NCBI RefSeq assembly: GCF_058153355.1
Contig: NZ_CM177019.1
Reading direction: 5' to 3' (one strand)
DNA length: 64,000 nucleotides
Shown here: positions 1,399 to 59,986 of the stretch, piece after piece
Layout of the letters: every line of letters starts with the position of its first letter
How positions within the stretch are numbered: the first letter of the stretch is position 1
The notes under the pieces: model-generated
Seen by the model: only the letters and a program-made list of their open reading frames with translations
The model's database searches: none
What the model was told of the DNA's origin: nothing
Translations under genes and position numbers: made by a program

Positions 1399-2070
1399 AT
1401 GCAGTACCCGATTAACGAGATGTTCCAGACCCTGCAAGGTGAGGGTTACTTTACCGGCGTCCCCGCCATTTTTATTCGTTTACAGGGATGCCCGGTCGGC
1501 TGTGCCTGGTGCGACACCAAACACACCTGGGAAAAGCTTGAGGATCGGGAAGTCTCCCTTTTCAGCATTCTGGCGAAGACCAAAGAGAGTGATAAGTGGG
1601 GGGCGGCGAGCAGTGAAGATTTGCTGGCTGTCATTGGTCGTCAGGGATACACCGCGCGGCATGTGGTGATTACGGGTGGTGAGCCTTGCATTCATGATTT
1701 GCTGCCACTGACTGACCTGCTCGAAAAGAACGGTTTTAGCTGCCAGATCGAAACCAGCGGTACTCATGAAGTACGCTGCACGCCGAATACCTGGGTTACC
1801 GTATCGCCAAAGCTGAACATGCGCGGCGGCTATGAAGTGTTGTCACAGGCACTGGAGCGAGCCAACGAAATCAAGCATCCAGTGGGACGCGTACGTGATA
1901 TTGAAGCACTGGATGAACTATTGGCGACGCTGACCGATGATAAACCACGAGTCATTGCACTGCAGCCAATTAGCCAAAAGGATGATGCCACACGTTTGTG
2001 CATTGAAACTTGCATTGCGCGTAACTGGCGTTTGTCGATGCAAACACATAAATATTTAAATATTGCCTGA
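1399..2070 (+). CDS. queE: 7-carboxy-7-deazaguanine synthase QueE (radical SAM)
   Basis: 223 aa ORF; N-terminus MQYPINEMFQTLQGEGYFTGVPAIFIRLQGCPVGCAWCDTKHTW carries the cysteine motif. Confidence 0.9.
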   Translation: MQYPINEMFQTLQGEGYFTGVPAIFIRLQGCPVGCAWCDTKHTWEKLEDREVSLFSILAKTKESDKWGAASSEDLLAVIGRQGYTARHVVITGGEPCIHDLLPLTDLLEKNGFSCQIETSGTHEVRCTPNTWVTVSPKLNMRGGYEVLSQALERANEIKHPVGRVRDIEALDELLATLTDDKPRVIALQPISQKDDATRLCIETCIARNWRLSMQTHKYLNIA

Positions 2071-2353
2071 CAGGTAATGTGAGTAGAGGTTGTGACGATT
2101 AAGCCTCTACTCTTACATCAATCTGTAAATGCCCCATTTTCTCCTCTCTTTGGTCCGACTCCGCAATTTCGTATATTTTTCAATAGTGTTAATGTTTTGT
2201 CCAAGTAAAAATTACCAGACATTCGGAGGTTTTTAACTAACATTTATAGTGGGTAAATTGGTGGGATACGCTTAACCTTAAAAAATCAATATAAACAATA
2301 GGTTATGATTGGTGTTTGTCTTATCGGATGAACTAATTTAAATGGAGTACTAA

Positions 2354-2617
2354 ATGGCTACTTTAATGGAAAAAGATTCTCTCCTGAATGGCGTAAGTCA
2401 AAATATTGCATTTTTATCAAATGTATCAGAAATGATTTACAAGTCCCAGAATGAAGAATTACAAAAGGAGATATATGAATTGGTGAGTTATAGAGACTAT
2501 TTATATTCAACAGGCCATGAACTCGTTGATTTCAAGGAAGGAGTATTGCGATTTCAGCAAGTTAGAAAAAAATACATGCAGGATCTAAAAGCGCTAGGTT
2601 ATCCCGCAACCAATTGA
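2354..2617 (+). CDS. hypothetical small protein in an AT-rich intergenic islet
   Basis: 87 aa ORF in a markedly AT-rich segment (about 2100-2790); no recognisable motif. Confidence 0.3.
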   Translation: MATLMEKDSLLNGVSQNIAFLSNVSEMIYKSQNEELQKEIYELVSYRDYLYSTGHELVDFKEGVLRFQQVRKKYMQDLKALGYPATN

Positions 2618-2797
2618 TAAATATGTCTTTATATTAATTTTAGGATGTGGATAACCTGCTGAAATTTATATTAAAAATGAAATAAAAATATTAAATTCAT
2701 ATCATGCTTGCGTTTTGTTCTCGATAACGCGTAATTTTGTTGAATGCTTTCTCCTGTGAATGCAAAACCAGGCAGTTTCCCGCCCGGCCTTCCTCAC

Positions 2798-4282
2798 TTA
2801 CGCATTCGACCAGCTCTGGATCGAATCTTCATTCCCCAGCTCACCATGCATCACTTCATACGATTTTTTCAGGATCACATCAGTGTGTTTGGTTAGGTCT
2901 TTGAAAATGCCTTTATTCATCGCGTCGTAGCGTTTGGCGTTGCTCTCAACAGGCATAAAGATATCTTTCACGCGAACCATTTTGTCGACAGCCGTTGCGT
3001 AATCCGGGTATAGCCCCAGACCTACCGCCGTATTAATCGCTGCCCCCAGGCTTGCACAACCGTTAATGGCGTTACGTCGTGCCGGAAGGTTGAACACGTC
3101 GGCAAAAATTTGCATAAACAGATCGCTGTTCGAACCGCCGCCAGTAATGATCACATGTTTCGCAAAGTGATTCATTTCATGACACATATTGTCGTAATTG
3201 TTCTTCAGCGTCAGCGTCAGCGCCACGCTTTCCAGTATCGAACGATATATCCATGCGTAATCCATGCTGGAATCAAAGCCGATCATAATCCCGCGTTTGT
3301 ACGGTTCCCACGGATTGGTCAGCCAGTCCAGCACCGTCATCAGACCATTACAGCCAGGCGGCACACAACAAGCTTTTTTGTTGAGCAAATCTTCCGGTGA
3401 AAGATCCTGCGCCCTGGCATCCTGAATTAACGATTCGCCTAGCATGTCGCGCAGCCAACTCACCGTCCACATGCCTTTGCGAATACCGTAACCTTCATAC
3501 AGCAAGGTTTGCGGAATAGAAGACATAATCGGCCAGTACGCTACCGGATCTTTCGGCAGTACTTTGCCGTTCATCATCAACGCGATGTAAGTGCCAAGAG
3601 AAATTACCGCAGTTTCATCATCCAGTAACCCGGCTCCCAGTGCTTCTACCGGTTTATCACTGGTGGTACAAACAACCGGCAGCCCAGCCGGGAAATGTGT
3701 CGCCAGCGCGGCTTGTGGTGTGATATGCCCAAGAACAGTGCCCGGCATTTGCACATCAAAAAGCATCTGTTGGGGAATATTAAACTTCTCCATTACCGCG
3801 GTATCTTCGCTCCATGCCCAGGTCTTATAATCCACCGGCCACTGACCAAAATAGTTGGCGATATTGTCTTTAAACTCGCCGGTTAAACGGTGTGTCAGAT
3901 AACCTGAAAAAGAGGTGACATATGCCACATCAGGATTGGTGTGCTCGTAGGGACGTGTTACGCGTGCATCCTGCCAGCTAATCAACGGCGCAGCTGGCGT
4001 GCCATCGGCTTTCAATAACGCACGGCAGCAACGGATAGATCCCAGACCAATGCCGACAATATCTTCTTTATTCCCGGCAAACTGGCTCATCAAATCGTGA
4101 CCAGCAAAACATAATGATGCCCATAAATCATCGTCAGGATGTTCTGCGGTATCGGCATCTGGAGTGTGCATCGGTTGTAATAAGCCTTTGCCTTCGCAAA
4201 CCACGTTACCTTCCAGATCGTACATCACCACTTTTGTGCTCTGACTTCCGCCATCAATCCCTATGATGTATTTTTTCGACAT
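2798..4282 (-). CDS. ygcE: FGGY-family carbohydrate kinase
   Basis: 494 aa ORF; N-terminal IGIDGGSQSTK kinase signature. Confidence 0.85.
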   Translation of the reverse strand: MSKKYIIGIDGGSQSTKVVMYDLEGNVVCEGKGLLQPMHTPDADTAEHPDDDLWASLCFAGHDLMSQFAGNKEDIVGIGLGSIRCCRALLKADGTPAAPLISWQDARVTRPYEHTNPDVAYVTSFSGYLTHRLTGEFKDNIANYFGQWPVDYKTWAWSEDTAVMEKFNIPQQMLFDVQMPGTVLGHITPQAALATHFPAGLPVVCTTSDKPVEALGAGLLDDETAVISLGTYIALMMNGKVLPKDPVAYWPIMSSIPQTLLYEGYGIRKGMWTVSWLRDMLGESLIQDARAQDLSPEDLLNKKACCVPPGCNGLMTVLDWLTNPWEPYKRGIMIGFDSSMDYAWIYRSILESVALTLTLKNNYDNMCHEMNHFAKHVIITGGGSNSDLFMQIFADVFNLPARRNAINGCASLGAAINTAVGLGLYPDYATAVDKMVRVKDIFMPVESNAKRYDAMNKGIFKDLTKHTDVILKKSYEVMHGELGNEDSIQSWSNA

Positions 4283-4308: not shown

Positions 4309-5586
4309 TTACTTGCTGCTAGCCATTGCGGGGGCGCTATCAGCAGTACGAATTTTTTGGAACAGCAAAAAGGTAAAGACGATCACCATGGCAAGCGCCG
4401 CCATGCCCATCAGCCACATATTGCGGTAGGCTTCTGCCGCGGGCAGGGTGTCTTGCCAGTGGCCGATAATTGGGTAAACGAAGACATCCGGCAGAAATCC
4501 AATCACCGAACAAATACCTACCGTGGTGCCCATAATGTAAGACGGTGTTCTCGCTTCGCCGGGGCAGGCCCAGTACAGCCCGCGGGAGGCGTAGCAGGTG
4601 AATCCCAGTAGTAAAATCAGGCCAATCCCCATCGCGACCGATTGCGGGTTAGAGTTCGTGATGAGCAGGGCAGTTAACGCCAGCAGGCCGAGTACGGAAA
4701 GGATTTGGATCACGCGGGTAGGGGATTTCACTTTGCTGTAGGTGGTGATAATGCCACCAAGTGGGCCGCACAGTGCGCGGAAGATTTTGTTGATCACAAT
4801 CCCCATGTAGCTCGCCGCCACCAGCGACATGCCGTACATTTCGGTCAGATAGTTGGTGGAGTAACTCAGAATGGCGTAGATGGTGAAGACGCCAAAAATC
4901 ACCATGCTGCAGTACCATGTGGTGCTGATACGCAAAACGGCAAGGATGTCGCTAAGCTGGAATGACTGTTTTTCTTCGGTGTTGGTATTGCGCAGGTTGT
5001 TGTTATCGCTAACAAAAAACCAGCACAGAATCCCCAACAAGATGTAAACCACACTATAGATGATAATGACCGTTTTCAGGCTGGCGCTGTCATCCGGTGC
5101 AAAGCGAGAAAAGACCCACATGGTAAACACCGCCAGCGACATTACACCGACGCCGCGCAGCCCTTCCATCCAGCCCATAATTTTCCCCTGCTCGCTATGA
5201 TCGCCAAGCAACGATGCGGCTTTAATCGACACCGACCACAGCATTAAAATCGTCGTTATCGCAAAGGCGACCTGAATACAGAGCATTACCCACAGCGGTG
5301 GATACGTTGCCATTAACAGACCCAGCAATCCGGTAATGATCATCGCGGAAGTAATCATTTTGCGGTGTGAAAATTTATCGGCAATAACGCTGCTGGGGGC
5401 ATAAAGAATAATAGCCGCAATACCAAAGGTACTCATTATTAAACCTATCTCGGTATTGCTGAATCCCATAAATTTCGCCATGGGAATTTGATAAATATAA
5501 CGTAAATAAGCCAGGTCGAAACTAACGCCGCCGCTAAAACTAATTATCGCGAGGGTTATCCAACGGCGATATGAGTTGTGTTGCAT
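4309..5586 (-). CDS. yqcE: MFS transporter
   Basis: 425 aa ORF, strongly hydrophobic with multiple predicted TM segments. Confidence 0.8.
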   Translation of the reverse strand: MQHNSYRRWITLAIISFSGGVSFDLAYLRYIYQIPMAKFMGFSNTEIGLIMSTFGIAAIILYAPSSVIADKFSHRKMITSAMIITGLLGLLMATYPPLWVMLCIQVAFAITTILMLWSVSIKAASLLGDHSEQGKIMGWMEGLRGVGVMSLAVFTMWVFSRFAPDDSASLKTVIIIYSVVYILLGILCWFFVSDNNNLRNTNTEEKQSFQLSDILAVLRISTTWYCSMVIFGVFTIYAILSYSTNYLTEMYGMSLVAASYMGIVINKIFRALCGPLGGIITTYSKVKSPTRVIQILSVLGLLALTALLITNSNPQSVAMGIGLILLLGFTCYASRGLYWACPGEARTPSYIMGTTVGICSVIGFLPDVFVYPIIGHWQDTLPAAEAYRNMWLMGMAALAMVIVFTFLLFQKIRTADSAPAMASSK

Positions 5587-5764
5587 ATCGTATTCCCATT
5601 TGTAATAGACAAAAAAAAGAGAAAAGTAAGCCGCCCTTTCAGGTGGATTACTTTTCTCAGGTCTCTAGTAATTGCAGTAAGAAATAACATGGAAAGCAGT
5701 GGTGTTGTGTGAGAGTAATCACGCTTCTGCTTTTTAAAATTATTTGACAATTCGAATATCACAC

Positions 5765-5780
5765 TGTGATTACGATCACA
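5765..5780. promoter_or_regulatory. candidate CRP binding site in the yqcE/ygcW divergent region
   Basis: TGTGA-ttacga-TCACA, perfect match to both half-sites of the CRP consensus. Confidence 0.45.
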
Positions 5781-5832
5781 TTAGCGCTTATGCCCTTATG
5801 CTAAAAATTATCTCCAGTTACCAGAGATAATG

Positions 5833-5880
5833 AGAAAGGTAACTTCCCTCTCGCGGGGGAAGTTACCTTTCTTTTTTTTT
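5833..5880 (+). terminator. intrinsic terminator-like hairpin with T-tract, 25 nt upstream of the ygcW start codon (possible leader attenuator)
   Basis: ggtaacttccc-tctcgcgg-gggaagttacc stem-loop followed by tttcttttttttttg on the + strand. Confidence 0.5.
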
Positions 5881-5904
5881 GCCTTACGGAAATTGGAGCT
5901 AACT

Positions 5905-6690
5905 ATGTCAATCGAATCTCTCAATGCGTTCTCAATGGATTTTTTCTCCCTGAAAGGTAAAACCGCAATTGTTACCGGCGGGAATAGCGGTTTAGGCCAG
6001 GCATTTGCCATGGCACTCGCAAAAGCAGGCGCAAATATCTTTATTCCAAGTTTCGTTAAAGATAATGGCGAAACAAAGGAAATGATTGAAAAACAGGGTG
6101 TTGAGGTGGACTTCATGCAGGTGGATATCACCGCAGAAGGCGCGCCGCAGAAGATAATTACCGCCTGTTGTGAACGTTTCGGCACCGTCGATATTCTGGT
6201 TAACAATGCCGGTATATGTAAGCTGAATAAGGTGCTGGATTTCGGTCGTGCCGACTGGGACCCGATGATTGACGTGAACCTGACCGCCGCATTCGAGTTA
6301 AGCTATGAAGCGGCAAAAATTATGATCCCGCAGAAAAGCGGTAAAATCATTAATATCTGTTCATTATTCTCTTACTTAGGTGGACAATGGTCACCTGCAT
6401 ATTCTGCCACTAAACATGCTCTTGCCGGATTCACCAAAGCTTATTGTGATGAACTAGGTCAATATAATATTCAGGTAAATGGTATTGCCCCTGGCTATTA
6501 TGCAACAGATATCACCCTGGCGACACGCAGTAATCCAGAAACCAATCAGCGCGTTCTTGATCATATTCCGGCAAACCGTTGGGGCGATACTCAGGATTTA
6601 ATGGGCGCAGCCGTATTCCTCGCAAGTCCGGCTTCAAATTATGTTAACGGGCATTTATTAGTGGTCGATGGCGGTTATTTAGTGCGCTAA
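5905..6690 (+). CDS. ygcW: short-chain dehydrogenase/reductase (KduD-like)
   Basis: 261 aa from ATG 5905; TGGNSGLG Rossmann motif; the ORF-track start at 5830 is an upstream in-frame extension. Confidence 0.85.
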   Translation: MSIESLNAFSMDFFSLKGKTAIVTGGNSGLGQAFAMALAKAGANIFIPSFVKDNGETKEMIEKQGVEVDFMQVDITAEGAPQKIITACCERFGTVDILVNNAGICKLNKVLDFGRADWDPMIDVNLTAAFELSYEAAKIMIPQKSGKIINICSLFSYLGGQWSPAYSATKHALAGFTKAYCDELGQYNIQVNGIAPGYYATDITLATRSNPETNQRVLDHIPANRWGDTQDLMGAAVFLASPASNYVNGHLLVVDGGYLVR

Positions 6691-10402: not shown

Positions 10403-11259
10403 ATATCGCCATTGTGACAATAAATCAGGAACATGCCGCAATAGCGGGCTGGCTGGCGGAGCAGGATTTCAGCGGCAGCACATTAACGCACTGGCAAATC
10501 GAGCCGCAGCCGATGGTCGCGGAACAGGTGCTGGATGCGCTGGTAGAACAGTGGCAGCGAACGCCTGCGGACGTTGTTCTCTTTCCGCCGGGAACGTTTG
10601 GCGATGAACTGGCTACCCGCCTGTCCTGGCGTTTACATGGTGCCAGTATATGCCAGGTGACTTCATTAAATATTCCAACCGGAAGCGTACGCAAATCCCA
10701 CTGGGGAAATGCGCTAACGGCGACGCTGCAAACAGAAAAACGCCCGCTATGCTTCTCCCTGGCGCGTCAGGCGGGAGCAGATAAAAACGCCTCGTTGCCC
10801 CCGGGTATGCAGCAACTGAACATTGTCCCAGGTGCGCTTCCCGGCTGGCTGGTTAGCATAGTGAACCTGAAAAATGTTACCCGTGACCCATTAGCTGAGG
10901 CCAGACGGGTGCTGGTGGTGGGGCAGGGCGGAGAGGCAGATAACCAGGAAATCGCTATGCTGGCAGAAAAGCTGGGAGCCGAAGTGGGCTACAGTCGGGC
11001 GCGAGTAATGAACGGTGGCGTTGATGCCGAAAAAGTGATTGGTATTTCCGGACATCTGCTGGCACCTGAGGTGTGTATTGTTGTTGGCGCTTCCGGCGCA
11101 GCAGCGTTAATGGCGGGCGTCCGCAATAGCAAGTTTGTGGTGGCGATTAATCATGACGCCAGCGCGGCGGTATTTTCACAGGCAGATGTTGGCGTGGTTG
11201 ATGACTGGAAAGCGGTGCTGGAGGCACTGGTGACAACCATTCACGCAGATTGCCAATAA
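10399..11259 (+). CDS. ygcQ: electron-transfer flavoprotein alpha-subunit-like protein (FixB-like)
   Basis: Start ATG 10399 (MNIAIVT) overlapping the ygcR stop. Confidence 0.8.
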   Translation: MNIAIVTINQEHAAIAGWLAEQDFSGSTLTHWQIEPQPMVAEQVLDALVEQWQRTPADVVLFPPGTFGDELATRLSWRLHGASICQVTSLNIPTGSVRKSHWGNALTATLQTEKRPLCFSLARQAGADKNASLPPGMQQLNIVPGALPGWLVSIVNLKNVTRDPLAEARRVLVVGQGGEADNQEIAMLAEKLGAEVGYSRARVMNGGVDAEKVIGISGHLLAPEVCIVVGASGAAALMAGVRNSKFVVAINHDASAAVFSQADVGVVDDWKAVLEALVTTIHADCQ

Positions 11260-11261
11260 CG

Positions 11262-11390
11262 TGCTGCCGGATGATCCTGCCTACGGTTCTGGGCTGGGGA
11301 CTTGTAAGCCTGATAAGACGCGTCAAGCGTCGTATCAGGCGCTGAATGTCGGATGTGGCGTGCAGCCTACAAATCACACAAATTCAATTC
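11262..11390. repeat. REP/BIME-like palindromic units
   Basis: gcctgataagacgcgtcaagcgtcgtatcaggcgc and gccggatg/ggcctac-type palindromes. Confidence 0.55.
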
Positions 11391-11405: not shown

Positions 11406-11981
11406 TCAAAGCAATTTTTTCGCTAACGTCCAGACCCCGGTATTCGTGGTAGAAAGCGCCACTACACCGGCGTTAATCGCATTACGCGCATCTTCTTCAT
11501 CGCACACCAGCCCGCCAGCAATCAGCGGCTGGTGGATTTTCTCCGTTACCCAGCCCAGTACTTTAGGCATACAGCCTGGCAGAATTTCAATACAATCCGG
11601 GTTCGATTGCGCAACCTGTTTATCAATGTTGTGAAATGAAATCGAATCAACAATAAACAAGCGATGAATACAGAAAAAGCCTTCCGCTCTCGCCGCTTTT
11701 AGCATTGACGCTTTGGTACTGATAATGCCGTCCGCCTCGGTCACCAGTTTCAGAAACTGAATTACTACTTCTTTATTTGACGCGCCTTCCAGCAAATCGA
11801 CATGAATAAAAGCATATTTTCCGGCGTTCTTAATCTTTTTGACGATATGACTGATGGTGCAAATATTGCCGTATAACACGGAAATAAACTGGCATTCAGA
11901 ATCGATTGCCAACTGCAGGCTGGCATTATCTTTAACGGCAGCAATCACCGGATTCTGGCGGAGCAGGTGTAAGAGGGGCAT
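11406..11981 (-). CDS. ygcP: GlpP-family glycerol-3-phosphate-responsive antiterminator-like protein
   Basis: 191 aa ORF; assignment from recalled similarity to K-12 YgcP. Confidence 0.8.
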   Translation of the reverse strand: MPLLHLLRQNPVIAAVKDNASLQLAIDSECQFISVLYGNICTISHIVKKIKNAGKYAFIHVDLLEGASNKEVVIQFLKLVTEADGIISTKASMLKAARAEGFFCIHRLFIVDSISFHNIDKQVAQSNPDCIEILPGCMPKVLGWVTEKIHQPLIAGGLVCDEEDARNAINAGVVALSTTNTGVWTLAKKLL

Positions 11982-29948: not shown

Positions 29949-31088
29949 ATGAGCGCGGGAAGCCCAAAATTCACCGTTCGCCGCATTGCGGCTTTGTCAC
30001 TGGTTTCGCTATGGCTGGCAGGCTGTTCTGACACTTCAAATCCACCGGCACCGGTCAGCTCCGTTAATGGCAATGCGTCTGCAAACACCAATTCTGGTAT
30101 GTTGATTACGCCGCCGCCGAAAATGGGGACGACGTCTACAACGCAGCAACCGCAAATTCAGCCGGTACAGCAGCCACAAATTCAATCTGCACAACAACCG
30201 CAAATCCAGCCGGTGCAGCCAGTTGCTCAGCCGCCGGTACAGATGGAAAACGGACGCATCGTCTACAACCGTCAGTATGGGAACATTCCGAAAGGCAGTT
30301 ATAGCGGCAGTACATACACCGTGAAAAAAGGCGACACACTTTTCTATATCGCCTGGATTACTGGCAATGATTTCCGTGACCTTGCTCAGCGCAACAATAT
30401 TCAGGCACCATACGCGCTGAATGTAGGTCAGACCTTACAGGTGGGTAATGCTTCCGGTACGCCAATCACTGGTGGAAATGCCATTACCCAGGCCGATGCA
30501 GCAGAGCAAGGAGTTGTGATCAAGCCTGCACAAAATTCCACCGTTGCTGTTGCGTCGCAACCGACAATTACGTATTCTGAGTCTTCGGGTGAACAGAGTG
30601 CTAACAAAATGTTGCCGAACAACAAGCCAACTGGGACCACGGTCACAGCGCCTGTAACGGTACCAACAGCAAGCACAACCGAGCCGACTGTCAGCAGTAC
30701 ATCAACCAGTACGCCTATCTCCACCTGGCGCTGGCCGACTGAGGGCAAAGTGATCGAAACTTTTGGTGCTTCTGAGGGGGGCAACAAGGGGATTGATATC
30801 GCGGGCAGCAAAGGACAGGCAATTATCGCGACCGCAGATGGCCGCGTTGTTTATGCTGGTAACGCGCTGCGCGGCTACGGTAATCTGATTATCATCAAAC
30901 ATAATGATGATTACCTGAGTGCCTACGCCCATAACGACACAATGCTGGTCCGGGAACAACAAGAAGTGAAGGCGGGGCAAAAAATAGCGACTATGGGTAG
31001 CACCGGAACCAGTTCAACACGCTTGCATTTTGAAATTCGTTACAAGGGGAAATCCGTAAACCCGCTGCGCTATTTGCCGCAGCGATAA
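29949..31088 (+). CDS. nlpD: murein hydrolase activator lipoprotein NlpD (LysM + M23 domains)
   Basis: 379 aa ORF; lipobox LAGC, Gln/Pro-rich repeats, LysM and peptidase-M23-like C-terminus. Confidence 0.9.
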
Positions 31089-59727: not shown

Positions 59728-59986
59728 CGGATTTTATCCTGTTATCAGTAGGGTAGAGGTAGTTGTTATCAGTCGACGTGACGGGAAATTGCCGATGCTG
59801 AAACGGAATTAAGAAACCGGTTTCACAAAATCATGAATAGTTGATACTGATTAAGCAAGAGAGTTAATTGCTCATTTTTTATATTTGTGAAACCGGTCAC
59901 CTGAATATTTTTCCCGCTGCTTGCGCAAGGACAATCAGCCAACGGTGCAGTACACTGCGTTGATTGCGTGTAAAGGGATGAAAATG

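Follow-up and report, generated by a model that had tools for sequence, protein, structure and literature searches.

A conserved RNA element with a candidate antiterminator helix lies ahead of ygcW and yqcE in Escherichia coli and accompanies the GlpP-family protein YgcP

The region between the divergent genes yqcE and ygcW was analyzed in a 64,000-nt stretch of DNA (contig NZ_CM177019.1 of NCBI RefSeq assembly GCF_058153355.1; "the window"), which is a segment of the Escherichia coli chromosome with 97-99% identity to sequenced strains. An initial annotation of its sequence had pointed to a CRP site and a strong terminator hairpin at positions 5740-5904. This segment is best explained as the promoter and leader of ygcW, forming one half of a mirror-symmetric divergent control region of which the other half serves yqcE-ygcE. 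The genes are arranged as follows:

2798-4282, minus strand: ygcE
4309-5586, minus strand: yqcE
5905-6690, plus strand: ygcW, with a Shine-Dalgarno sequence GGAG at 5896-5899 and the start codon ATG at 5905-5907 (from the sequence and the RefSeq annotation of the orthologous K-12 locus)
downstream of ygcW, plus strand: ygcU, ygcS, ygcR and ygcQ
11406-11981, minus strand: ygcP, encoding a GlpP-family protein (PF04309, E = 2e-62, 210 bits), the proposed trans-acting antiterminator

The yqcE/ygcW intergenic segment was found as a single copy in 5,046 of 5,426 complete E. coli genomes, and it is missing entirely from ~7% of them. Since yqcE, the upstream neighbor of the ygcW leader, lies on the minus strand and no plus-strand gene ends in the region, the hairpin does not terminate an upstream plus-strand gene, as had been noted initially. 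The leader contains two structures:

5832-5873, plus strand: terminator stem-loop (5' arm 5832-5850, loop of 4 nt at 5851-5854, 3' arm 5855-5873)
5872-5880, plus strand: U9 tract of the terminator, read from the sequence
5816-5844, plus strand: antiterminator helix P1, pairing AGUUACC (5816-5822) with GGUAACU (5838-5844) around the loop AGAGAUAAUGAGAAA (5823-5837), a candidate protein-binding site

The hairpin is a real signal for an early stop of transcription. Its stem, first described as 11 bp long, comprises 16 perfect Watson-Crick pairs (5833-5848 with 5857-5872) and 19 with the extension; the long T-tract reported with it is present as T9 and ends 24 nt before the ygcW ATG, close to the 25 nt given before. 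Folding of 5780-5910 gave a z-score of -5.4, and none of 200 shuffled sequences was as stable. About 110 elements of this kind were collected overall, giving alignment A1 of 91 distinct elements and a second, model-made alignment, A2. The terminator helix is 90.8% paired in A1, with double changes at 11 pairs. A scan of 5000-6500 against Rfam 15 returned matches at chance level, the best with 24 bits against thresholds of 90-100. In each of 5,061 E. coli genomes the hairpin was found at a single locus; the "2 places" reported per genome are the two strands of the same palindrome.

Transcription of the plus strand and its premature termination are experimentally supported by published RNA-seq and Term-seq data. 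Romero et al. (2014; PMC4681348) reported a 73-nt RNA, ecr2774, upstream of ygcW and a 63-nt RNA, ecr2775, upstream of yqcE, each on the strand of the following gene and the latter detected by northern blotting. Both were listed as candidate small RNAs (sRNAs) of the class "simple stem-loop, perhaps REP-like" (REP, repetitive extragenic palindromic). In window coordinates the RNA-seq edges lie at ~5811-5885 on the plus strand and ~5672-5609 on the minus strand. Using Term-seq on cells grown in lysogeny broth (LB) to an optical density of 0.4, Adams et al. (2021; PMC7815308) recorded 3' ends at K-12 positions 2900311(-), with 40,640 reads, and 2900556(+), with 1,557 reads, which correspond to window positions 5867 and 5622 (mapped via NC_000913.3). 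These ends are located 38 nt (ygcW) and 36 nt (yqcE) ahead of the start codons, and no regulatory element was assigned to them. With Rho scores of 0.50 (ygcW) and 0.61 (yqcE) they were insensitive to bicyclomycin, neither fell within a significant Rho termination region, and their intrinsic terminator scores were 15.8 and 11.4, respectively (PMC7815308).

An alternative structure within 5780-5880, which the initial annotation had suggested looking for, was found in the form of P1. This helix has 6-7 bp, and its 3' strand lies in the middle of the terminator 5' arm, which also covers part of the P1 loop, making P1 and the terminator mutually exclusive. The whole RNA element spans ~67 nt. Across all elements the P1 consensus is RUUACY paired with RGUAAY, and the loop AGAG-N4-5-GAGAAA is near-invariant across phyla. 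P1 pairing amounts to 92.3% in A1 and 94.0% in A2, which was built without modelling the P1 columns as pairs, whereas controls with a slid register gave 15-54%. Compensatory changes are seen at two to three pairs. At pair 8:38, 71 elements have G-C and 33 have A-U; at pair 13:33, 75 have U-A and 24 have C-G; and at pair 11:35, A-U is replaced by G-C in locus L025 and in Listeria. The covariation of column 33 is three-way, involving its partners in both P1 and the terminator. Of 109 rows, column 38 is paired with its P1 partner in 104 and with its terminator partner in only 33. Because it stays paired with P1 rather than with the terminator, selection appears to act on P1 itself. In stepwise folding P1 forms first (-6.7 kcal/mol for ygcW and -1.4 kcal/mol for yqcE) and is displaced once the 3' arm has been made; the full fold reaches -31.2 kcal/mol, compared to -15.6 kcal/mol with P1 enforced. 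When P1 is held in these calculations, the upper terminator stem alone forms, 12 nt from the U tract. The initial proposal of a leader attenuator or short RNA is supported by the Rho-independent Term-seq end, the 73-nt RNA and the covarying antiterminator helix.

Two features were absent from the initial annotation: a second CRP site and a paralogous element on the minus strand ahead of yqcE (5611-5679), which forms a mirror image of the ygcW leader. The latter consists of:

5658-5619, minus strand: yqcE leader terminator stem-loop, followed by U8 at 5618-5611 (covariance-model match of 79 bits; Term-seq end)
5672-5647, minus strand: yqcE P1, pairing AUUACU (5672-5667) with AGUAAU (5652-5647) around the loop AGAGACCUGAGAAA

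On the minus strand, 5658-5611 reads GAGAAAAGUAAUCCACCUGAAAGGGCGGCUUACUUUUCUC followed by U8. The lower stem and the 5' flank of the two copies are homologous, reading CAGUUACCAGAGAUAAUGAGAAAGGUAAC on the plus strand and CAAUUACUAGAGACC-UGAGAAAAGUAAU on the minus strand. Compared with the ygcW copy, P1 of yqcE carries G-C to A-U changes with the pairing kept. Both copies have the form of an intrinsic terminator, with a 19-bp stem and T9 for ygcW and a stem of 11+5 bp and T8 for yqcE. They are the only two copies in the window, and a search for the element ahead of ygcN and ygcP in the window found none. In Limnobaculum eriocheiris (L033, 3087-3160) the yqcE-ygcW region is reduced to one hairpin between A9 and T9, which the model matches in either orientation; the P1 strands, promoters and CRP sites of the two sides are all lost. 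This looks like a deletion between two inverted elements that left a bidirectional terminator.

Each leader appears to be driven by a class II CRP promoter, with CRP at -41.5, an extended -10 and no -35 hexamer. The promoter features, with starts predicted from sequence, are:

5765-5780 (center 5772.5): CRP site 2, TGTGATTACGATCACA, a perfect TGTGA-N6-TCACA with 0 mismatches, class II, -41.5 from the predicted ygcW start
5799-5807, plus strand: ygcW extended -10, with TG at 5799-5800, one base, and TAAAAA at 5802-5807 (conserved TGnTAnnn; assigned by consensus)
~5814 (5811-5816), plus strand: predicted ygcW start, 7 nt past the -10 hexamer and 41.5 nt from the CRP center (5' edge of ecr2774 at ~5811-5812)
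5708-5723 (center 5715.5): CRP site 1, TGTGAGAGTAATCACG, 9 of 10 consensus positions, ~-41.5 from the predicted minus-strand yqcE start
5681-5689, minus strand: yqcE extended -10, TGTTATTTC (conserved TGnTAnnn)
~5674 (5672-5676), minus strand: predicted yqcE start, from promoter geometry (5' edge of ecr2775 at ~5672)

CRP site 2, which was already recognized in the initial annotation, was the sole perfect consensus match in the window by pattern search. Four sites with at most one mismatch were found in the window, compared to 1.8 expected, and two of the four lie 57 bp apart in the yqcE/ygcW intergenic region. Binding of CRP to site 2 in vivo is evident from a chromatin immunoprecipitation sequencing (ChIP-seq) peak in enterotoxigenic E. 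coli (ETEC; PMC4287617), and footprint-seq gave an apparent in vitro Kd of 1.7 nM for this site, which was labelled "novel" (PMC12871828). The site had also been predicted earlier by PhyloScan. In every Enterobacterales locus and on both sides, the CRP center is located 43.5-46.5 nt upstream of the first U of UUAC (43.5-45.5 nt from the element on the yqcE side), and the extended -10 TGnTAnnn 17-19 nt upstream of the same U (17-18 nt on the yqcE side). From these conserved spacings it follows that transcription would start ~2-4 nt before the element, with CRP at -41.5. The RNA-seq 5' edges differ from the two predicted starts by no more than 2-3 nt. The distance between the two CRP sites differs among genera (36-173 bp), which indicates that each promoter uses its own proximal site. 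The TTGACA hexamer reported next to the CRP site is indeed present at 5744-5749, but it lies ~65-70 nt upstream of the conserved start, is not conserved in other genera, and does not serve as a conserved -35, CRP itself being at -41.5. A TTGACA-16-TGTGAT promoter, proposed from genomic SELEX (systematic evolution of ligands by exponential enrichment), was rejected as the conserved promoter, as it is not conserved outside Escherichia; it could be a minor start in E. coli. Element copies in Firmicutes are found 5-15 nt downstream of consensus sigma-A promoters (TTGACA-17-TATAxT). Near-consensus CRP sites were also seen at window positions 30632-30647 and 59886-59901, and their reverse complements match entries of the ETEC ChIP-seq table for nlpD (one base different) and ascG/ascF (identical), respectively (PMC4287617).

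To describe the distribution of the element, 80 loci encoding YgcW relatives were collected, their genes were typed by tblastn, and the element was called with covariance model R1 at >40 bits. All 54 ygcW loci with a neighboring ygcP homolog carried the element, compared to 3 of the 26 that lacked one (uncorrected Fisher P 4e-17). Two of these three are on truncated contigs, and for the third, from Serratia microhaemolytica, the protein search located a YgcP homolog elsewhere (P0051). Every element-carrying locus with enough flanking sequence has a ygcP homolog. Within the Enterobacterales (Escherichia, Citrobacter, Klebsiella, Raoultella, Enterobacter, Serratia, Rahnella, Pantoea, Erwinia, Budvicia and others) yqcE and ygcW remain divergent, and both leaders contain the element. 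In Firmicutes (Sporomusa, Cohnella, Geosporobacter, Halobacillus, Dethiosulfatibacter and several Clostridia metagenome-assembled genomes, MAGs) it precedes ygcW, ygcU and transporter genes, and it also occurs within operons, ahead of ygcU. The element lies 21-125 nt ahead of the start codons of catabolic or transport genes. In ygcW/ygcE/ygcU clusters without ygcP, from Actinobacteria, Deltaproteobacteria and some Firmicutes, the element was not found either. Two Listeria booriae loci found by a GlpP-first search (L084 and L085, outside the ygcW-based count) have a diverged copy of 23 bits, in which UUAC/GUAA is changed to UUGC/GCGA and the P1 pairing is kept.

A motif-first metagenome scan yielded 80 loci, of which 65 carried the full element, and all of those with informative flanks were ygc clusters. 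The remaining loci fall into a marine phage-like family plus two further groups; they fit the 20 specified bases, have neither a terminator nor ygc genes, and were judged to be chance matches. The marine contigs (L091, L101, L112, L115, L120, L123, L145, L152 and L163) are AT-rich and phage-like, with dense small open reading frames (ORFs). They contain an exact 25-nt match to P1 and its loop, AUUACU AGAGGGCACGAGAAA AGUAAU (e.g. L112, 9677-9701), followed by a weak AU hairpin only; the hairpin geometry is preserved in these matches although they were judged to be chance. Firmicute MAGs carry up to three elements per cluster, as in L055 at 5624-5693(-), 5849-5912(+) and 10523-10609(+), with L060, L062, L065, L057 and L064 being similar. 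In clusters of this type the divergent copies drive two BCCT-family transporters, and the internal copy precedes the ygcU homolog. Since the usual cargo of BCCT transporters is quaternary amines, their presence gives a hint at the substrate of the ygc pathway.

YgcP, whose RefSeq product name is "glycerol-3-phosphate responsive antiterminator", matches PF04309 only and has neither a CAT RNA-binding domain nor PRDs. YgcP-type proteins of E. coli and Firmicutes share at least 50% identity, compared to ~28-42% with other family members. Their genes always adjoin those for a short-chain dehydrogenase/reductase (SDR), an FGGY kinase, a flavin adenine dinucleotide (FAD) oxidase and a transporter, and because of these constant neighbors we regard them as a subgroup distinct from GlpP of the glycerol regulon. 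The gene content (SDR, FGGY kinase, FAD oxidase, MFS/BCCT) suggests a substrate other than glycerol-3-phosphate. Since the element occurs from E. coli to Firmicutes wherever YgcP is encoded, it is probably the RNA target of YgcP, with binding, inducer and direction of regulation being inferred. The probable link to a GlpP-like antiterminator drawn in the initial annotation is supported by co-occurrence across phyla.

Accordingly, we hypothesize the following circuit. CRP would activate the two back-to-back promoters, and each transcript would start 2-4 nt before the RNA element. By default the terminator would displace P1 and transcription would stop after ~65 nt, 24 nt before the start codon in the case of ygcW, releasing ecr2774 and ecr2775. 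In the induced state, YgcP loaded with its inducer would bind P1 and the loop; by analogy with GlpK, glycerol-3-phosphate and GlpP, this inducer may be a phosphorylated product of the FGGY kinase YgcE. With P1 kept closed, only the upper stem would form, separated from the U tract by 12 nt, and RNA polymerase would read into ygcWUSRQ and yqcE-ygcE. We consider such YgcP-dependent antitermination on top of CRP activation, as a variant of the GlpP type, to be the best explanation of the data and a likely one.

The closest known system is that of GlpP in Bacillus subtilis, which acts on the glpD, glpFK and glpTQ leaders and belongs to the same regulator family (PF04309). Both systems share the layout of a promoter, a regulator site at the 5' end and an intrinsic terminator in the 5' untranslated region (UTR; PMC9604022), as well as an underlying global catabolite control (CcpA there, CRP here) and a kinase in the regulon as a possible source of the inducer. 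A published primer gives the initial 36 nt of the B. subtilis glpD 5' UTR, which can be drawn as a similar AAAUUAC..GUAUUU hairpin, a likeness to be taken as a lead only. The regulon is different, however: the ygc genes encode the SDR YgcW, the FAD oxidase YgcU, the FGGY kinase YgcE, MFS/BCCT transporters and electron transfer flavoprotein (ETF) proteins instead of glpF, K, D, T and Q. The host of the ygc system is Gram-negative with class II CRP promoters, and the inducer need not be glycerol-3-phosphate. In locus L089 (5833-5920, minus strand) a GlpP homolog with 28% identity is divergent from an operon for a glpQ-like glycerophosphodiester phosphodiesterase and a tripartite ATP-independent periplasmic transporter. 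The leader of this operon has its own terminator of different sequence, AAGCGAUAGCUA..UAGCUAUCGCUU followed by U8, which suggests that each GlpP subgroup may have its own RNA site.

E. coli BglG and the ribonucleic antiterminator (RAT) systems of B. subtilis SacY-LicT follow the same logic, in which termination is the default and a protein stabilizes a short 5' hairpin overlapping the terminator 5' arm. The protein is unrelated, as YgcP lacks the CAT domain and the PRDs; the RNA is unrelated to RAT by inspection, and there is no evident link to the phosphotransferase system. HutP and the trp RNA-binding attenuation protein (TRAP) are oligomers that recognize NAG/GAG triplet repeats in leader RNAs. 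Spaced GAG triplets are also found in the P1 loop (A-GAG-N5-GAG-AAA; in Firmicutes GAG-UU-GAG-A-GAA), but this loop has two or three triplets only and the protein folds differ. Entries of GlpP relatives in the PDB contain 4-8 chains. Given these chain numbers and the GAG triplets, recognition of the repeats by an oligomer is conceivable, and reading of the triplets by YgcP in the manner of HutP or TRAP is a speculation by analogy. The galP1 promoter is a class II CRP promoter with an extended -10. Promoters of this type likewise have CRP at -41.5, a TGn extended -10 and no -35 hexamer; the ygc region differs in having two of them back to back, each feeding directly into an attenuator.

Several observations weigh against YgcP-dependent antitermination. 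The covariation concerns few positions and probably reflects a handful of independent events, and the shuffle control was not phylogeny-aware. Instead of falling in the U tract, the Term-seq ends are 5-13 nt short of its end, within the AU-rich lower stem; 3' trimming by exonucleases may account for this offset, as may a lower stem (GAGAAA) that stays unpaired or is occupied in vivo. The transcription starts are inferred from promoter consensus and RNA-seq coverage edges. The element and ygcP would also be found together if they merely travelled in one mobile gene cluster. Model R1 scored <16 bits in the leaders of two canonical-type GlpP loci (L088 and L089), and a literature search for a function or RNA target of YgcP, or for an experiment tying it to the leaders, found nothing; a review of antiterminators makes no mention of GlpP.

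Other explanations were weighed against the same evidence. The leaders could simply carry constitutive terminators that damp or insulate divergent CRP-driven transcription, or the 63-73 nt RNAs could act in trans, without any regulated read-through. The abundance of the short RNAs in LB (40,640 Term-seq reads), the visibility of one of them on a northern blot, their listing as candidate sRNAs by Romero et al. and the far greater stability of the terminator compared with P1 all fit such a role. A plain terminator, however, needs no conserved upstream strand covarying with its 5' arm, and column 38 is kept paired with P1; the element is always found directly before catabolic or transport genes, and Firmicute copies lie inside operons ahead of ygcU. 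We know of no trans target for ecr2774 or ecr2775. This explanation is therefore regarded as unlikely. Likewise, P1 and the AGAG..GAGAAA loop could bind a metabolite directly as a protein-independent riboswitch, with YgcP doing something else. The near-invariant loop nucleotides and the antiterminator/terminator layout are typical of riboswitches, and the GlpP fold resembles small-molecule-binding barrels, with two PDB relatives annotated by homology only. The putative aptamer, however, would comprise just ~29-35 nt with one helix, it matches no Rfam family, and B. subtilis GlpP is reported to exert its effect at terminators in the leaders of the genes it controls (PMC9604022). The strict co-occurrence with ygcP also disfavors a riboswitch, the element being present in 54 of 54 loci with ygcP as opposed to 3 explainable cases among 26 without, and clusters of ygcW, ygcU and ygcE lacking ygcP lack the element as well. 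We consider it improbable. It would be an unexpected outcome, and one to which we give little credence, that a hairpin of ~35 nt, conserved from E. coli as far as Clostridia and Bacilli, is a very small riboswitch sensing a ygc-pathway metabolite, or that its GAG triplets are read by YgcP oligomers in TRAP or HutP style. Glatz and colleagues reportedly found in 1998 that B. subtilis GlpP binds leader RNA directly.

Attenuation by a translating ribosome or by Rho is very improbable. Small ORFs are present, starting at ATG 5790 (4 codons), ATG 5798 (10 codons) and ATG 5830 (in frame with ygcW), but the first two lie upstream of the predicted start at ~5814, and ATG 5830 has no Shine-Dalgarno sequence and is absent from the E. 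coli yqcE leader and the Firmicute copies. No conserved ATG or Shine-Dalgarno sequence was found within the leader transcript across the aligned elements. With respect to Rho, the scores of 0.50 and 0.61 and the location of both 3' ends outside significant Rho regions argue against its involvement. Two related palindromes in inverted orientation within one intergenic region, together with the "perhaps REP-like" class of Romero et al., could also be taken to indicate a REP-like or mobile palindromic repeat. A genome-wide repeat of this kind had been named in the initial annotation as a possible objection, together with a lack of plus-strand transcription; the published data document that such transcription does occur. 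The single locus per genome in 5,061 E. coli genomes, the mere two copies in the window and the fixed position relative to promoters and start codons across orders and phyla leave next to no room for this explanation, and the copy number refutes it. A true multi-copy-type REP-like palindrome, GCCTGATAAGACGCGTCAAGCGTCGTATCAGGC, is found at 11290-11345, between ygcQ and ygcP, and is unlike the leader hairpins.

The CRP site, the short RNAs and the 3' ends have been published separately and were unconnected and unexplained before. The conserved antiterminator element, its twin, its distribution across phyla and the link to YgcP appear to be new. YgcP-dependent antitermination would join an unstudied ten-gene cluster of K-12 (ygcNOP, ygcQRSUW and yqcE-ygcE), an orphan "antiterminator", two short RNAs and two premature 3' ends into one circuit. 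If true, it would be the second protein-RNA antitermination system in E. coli besides BglG and the first GlpP-type system described in Proteobacteria, with an RNA motif outside Rfam conserved across two phyla. Leader read-through could then serve as a reporter for finding the substrate of the ygc pathway, and the compact 67-nt element would be a candidate for a portable switch, a role in which the B. subtilis glpD leader has already proved itself.

Some further observations were made at the locus. ATG 5830 opens an ORF of 286 aa that runs through the hairpin in frame with ygcW. An older array probe set for the intergenic region begins at 2898371, which we take to mean that an earlier annotation began ygcW there. 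In E. coli PK8277 (L002), three IS1 copies surround a deletion from ygcW through most of ygcP, and yqcE is truncated. K-12 strains have a clustered regularly interspaced short palindromic repeats (CRISPR) array between queE and ygcE. Compared with L001 (2185-2578), window positions 2060-2800 show no visible repeats and instead consist of AT-rich DNA with an 87-aa ORF at 2354-2617.

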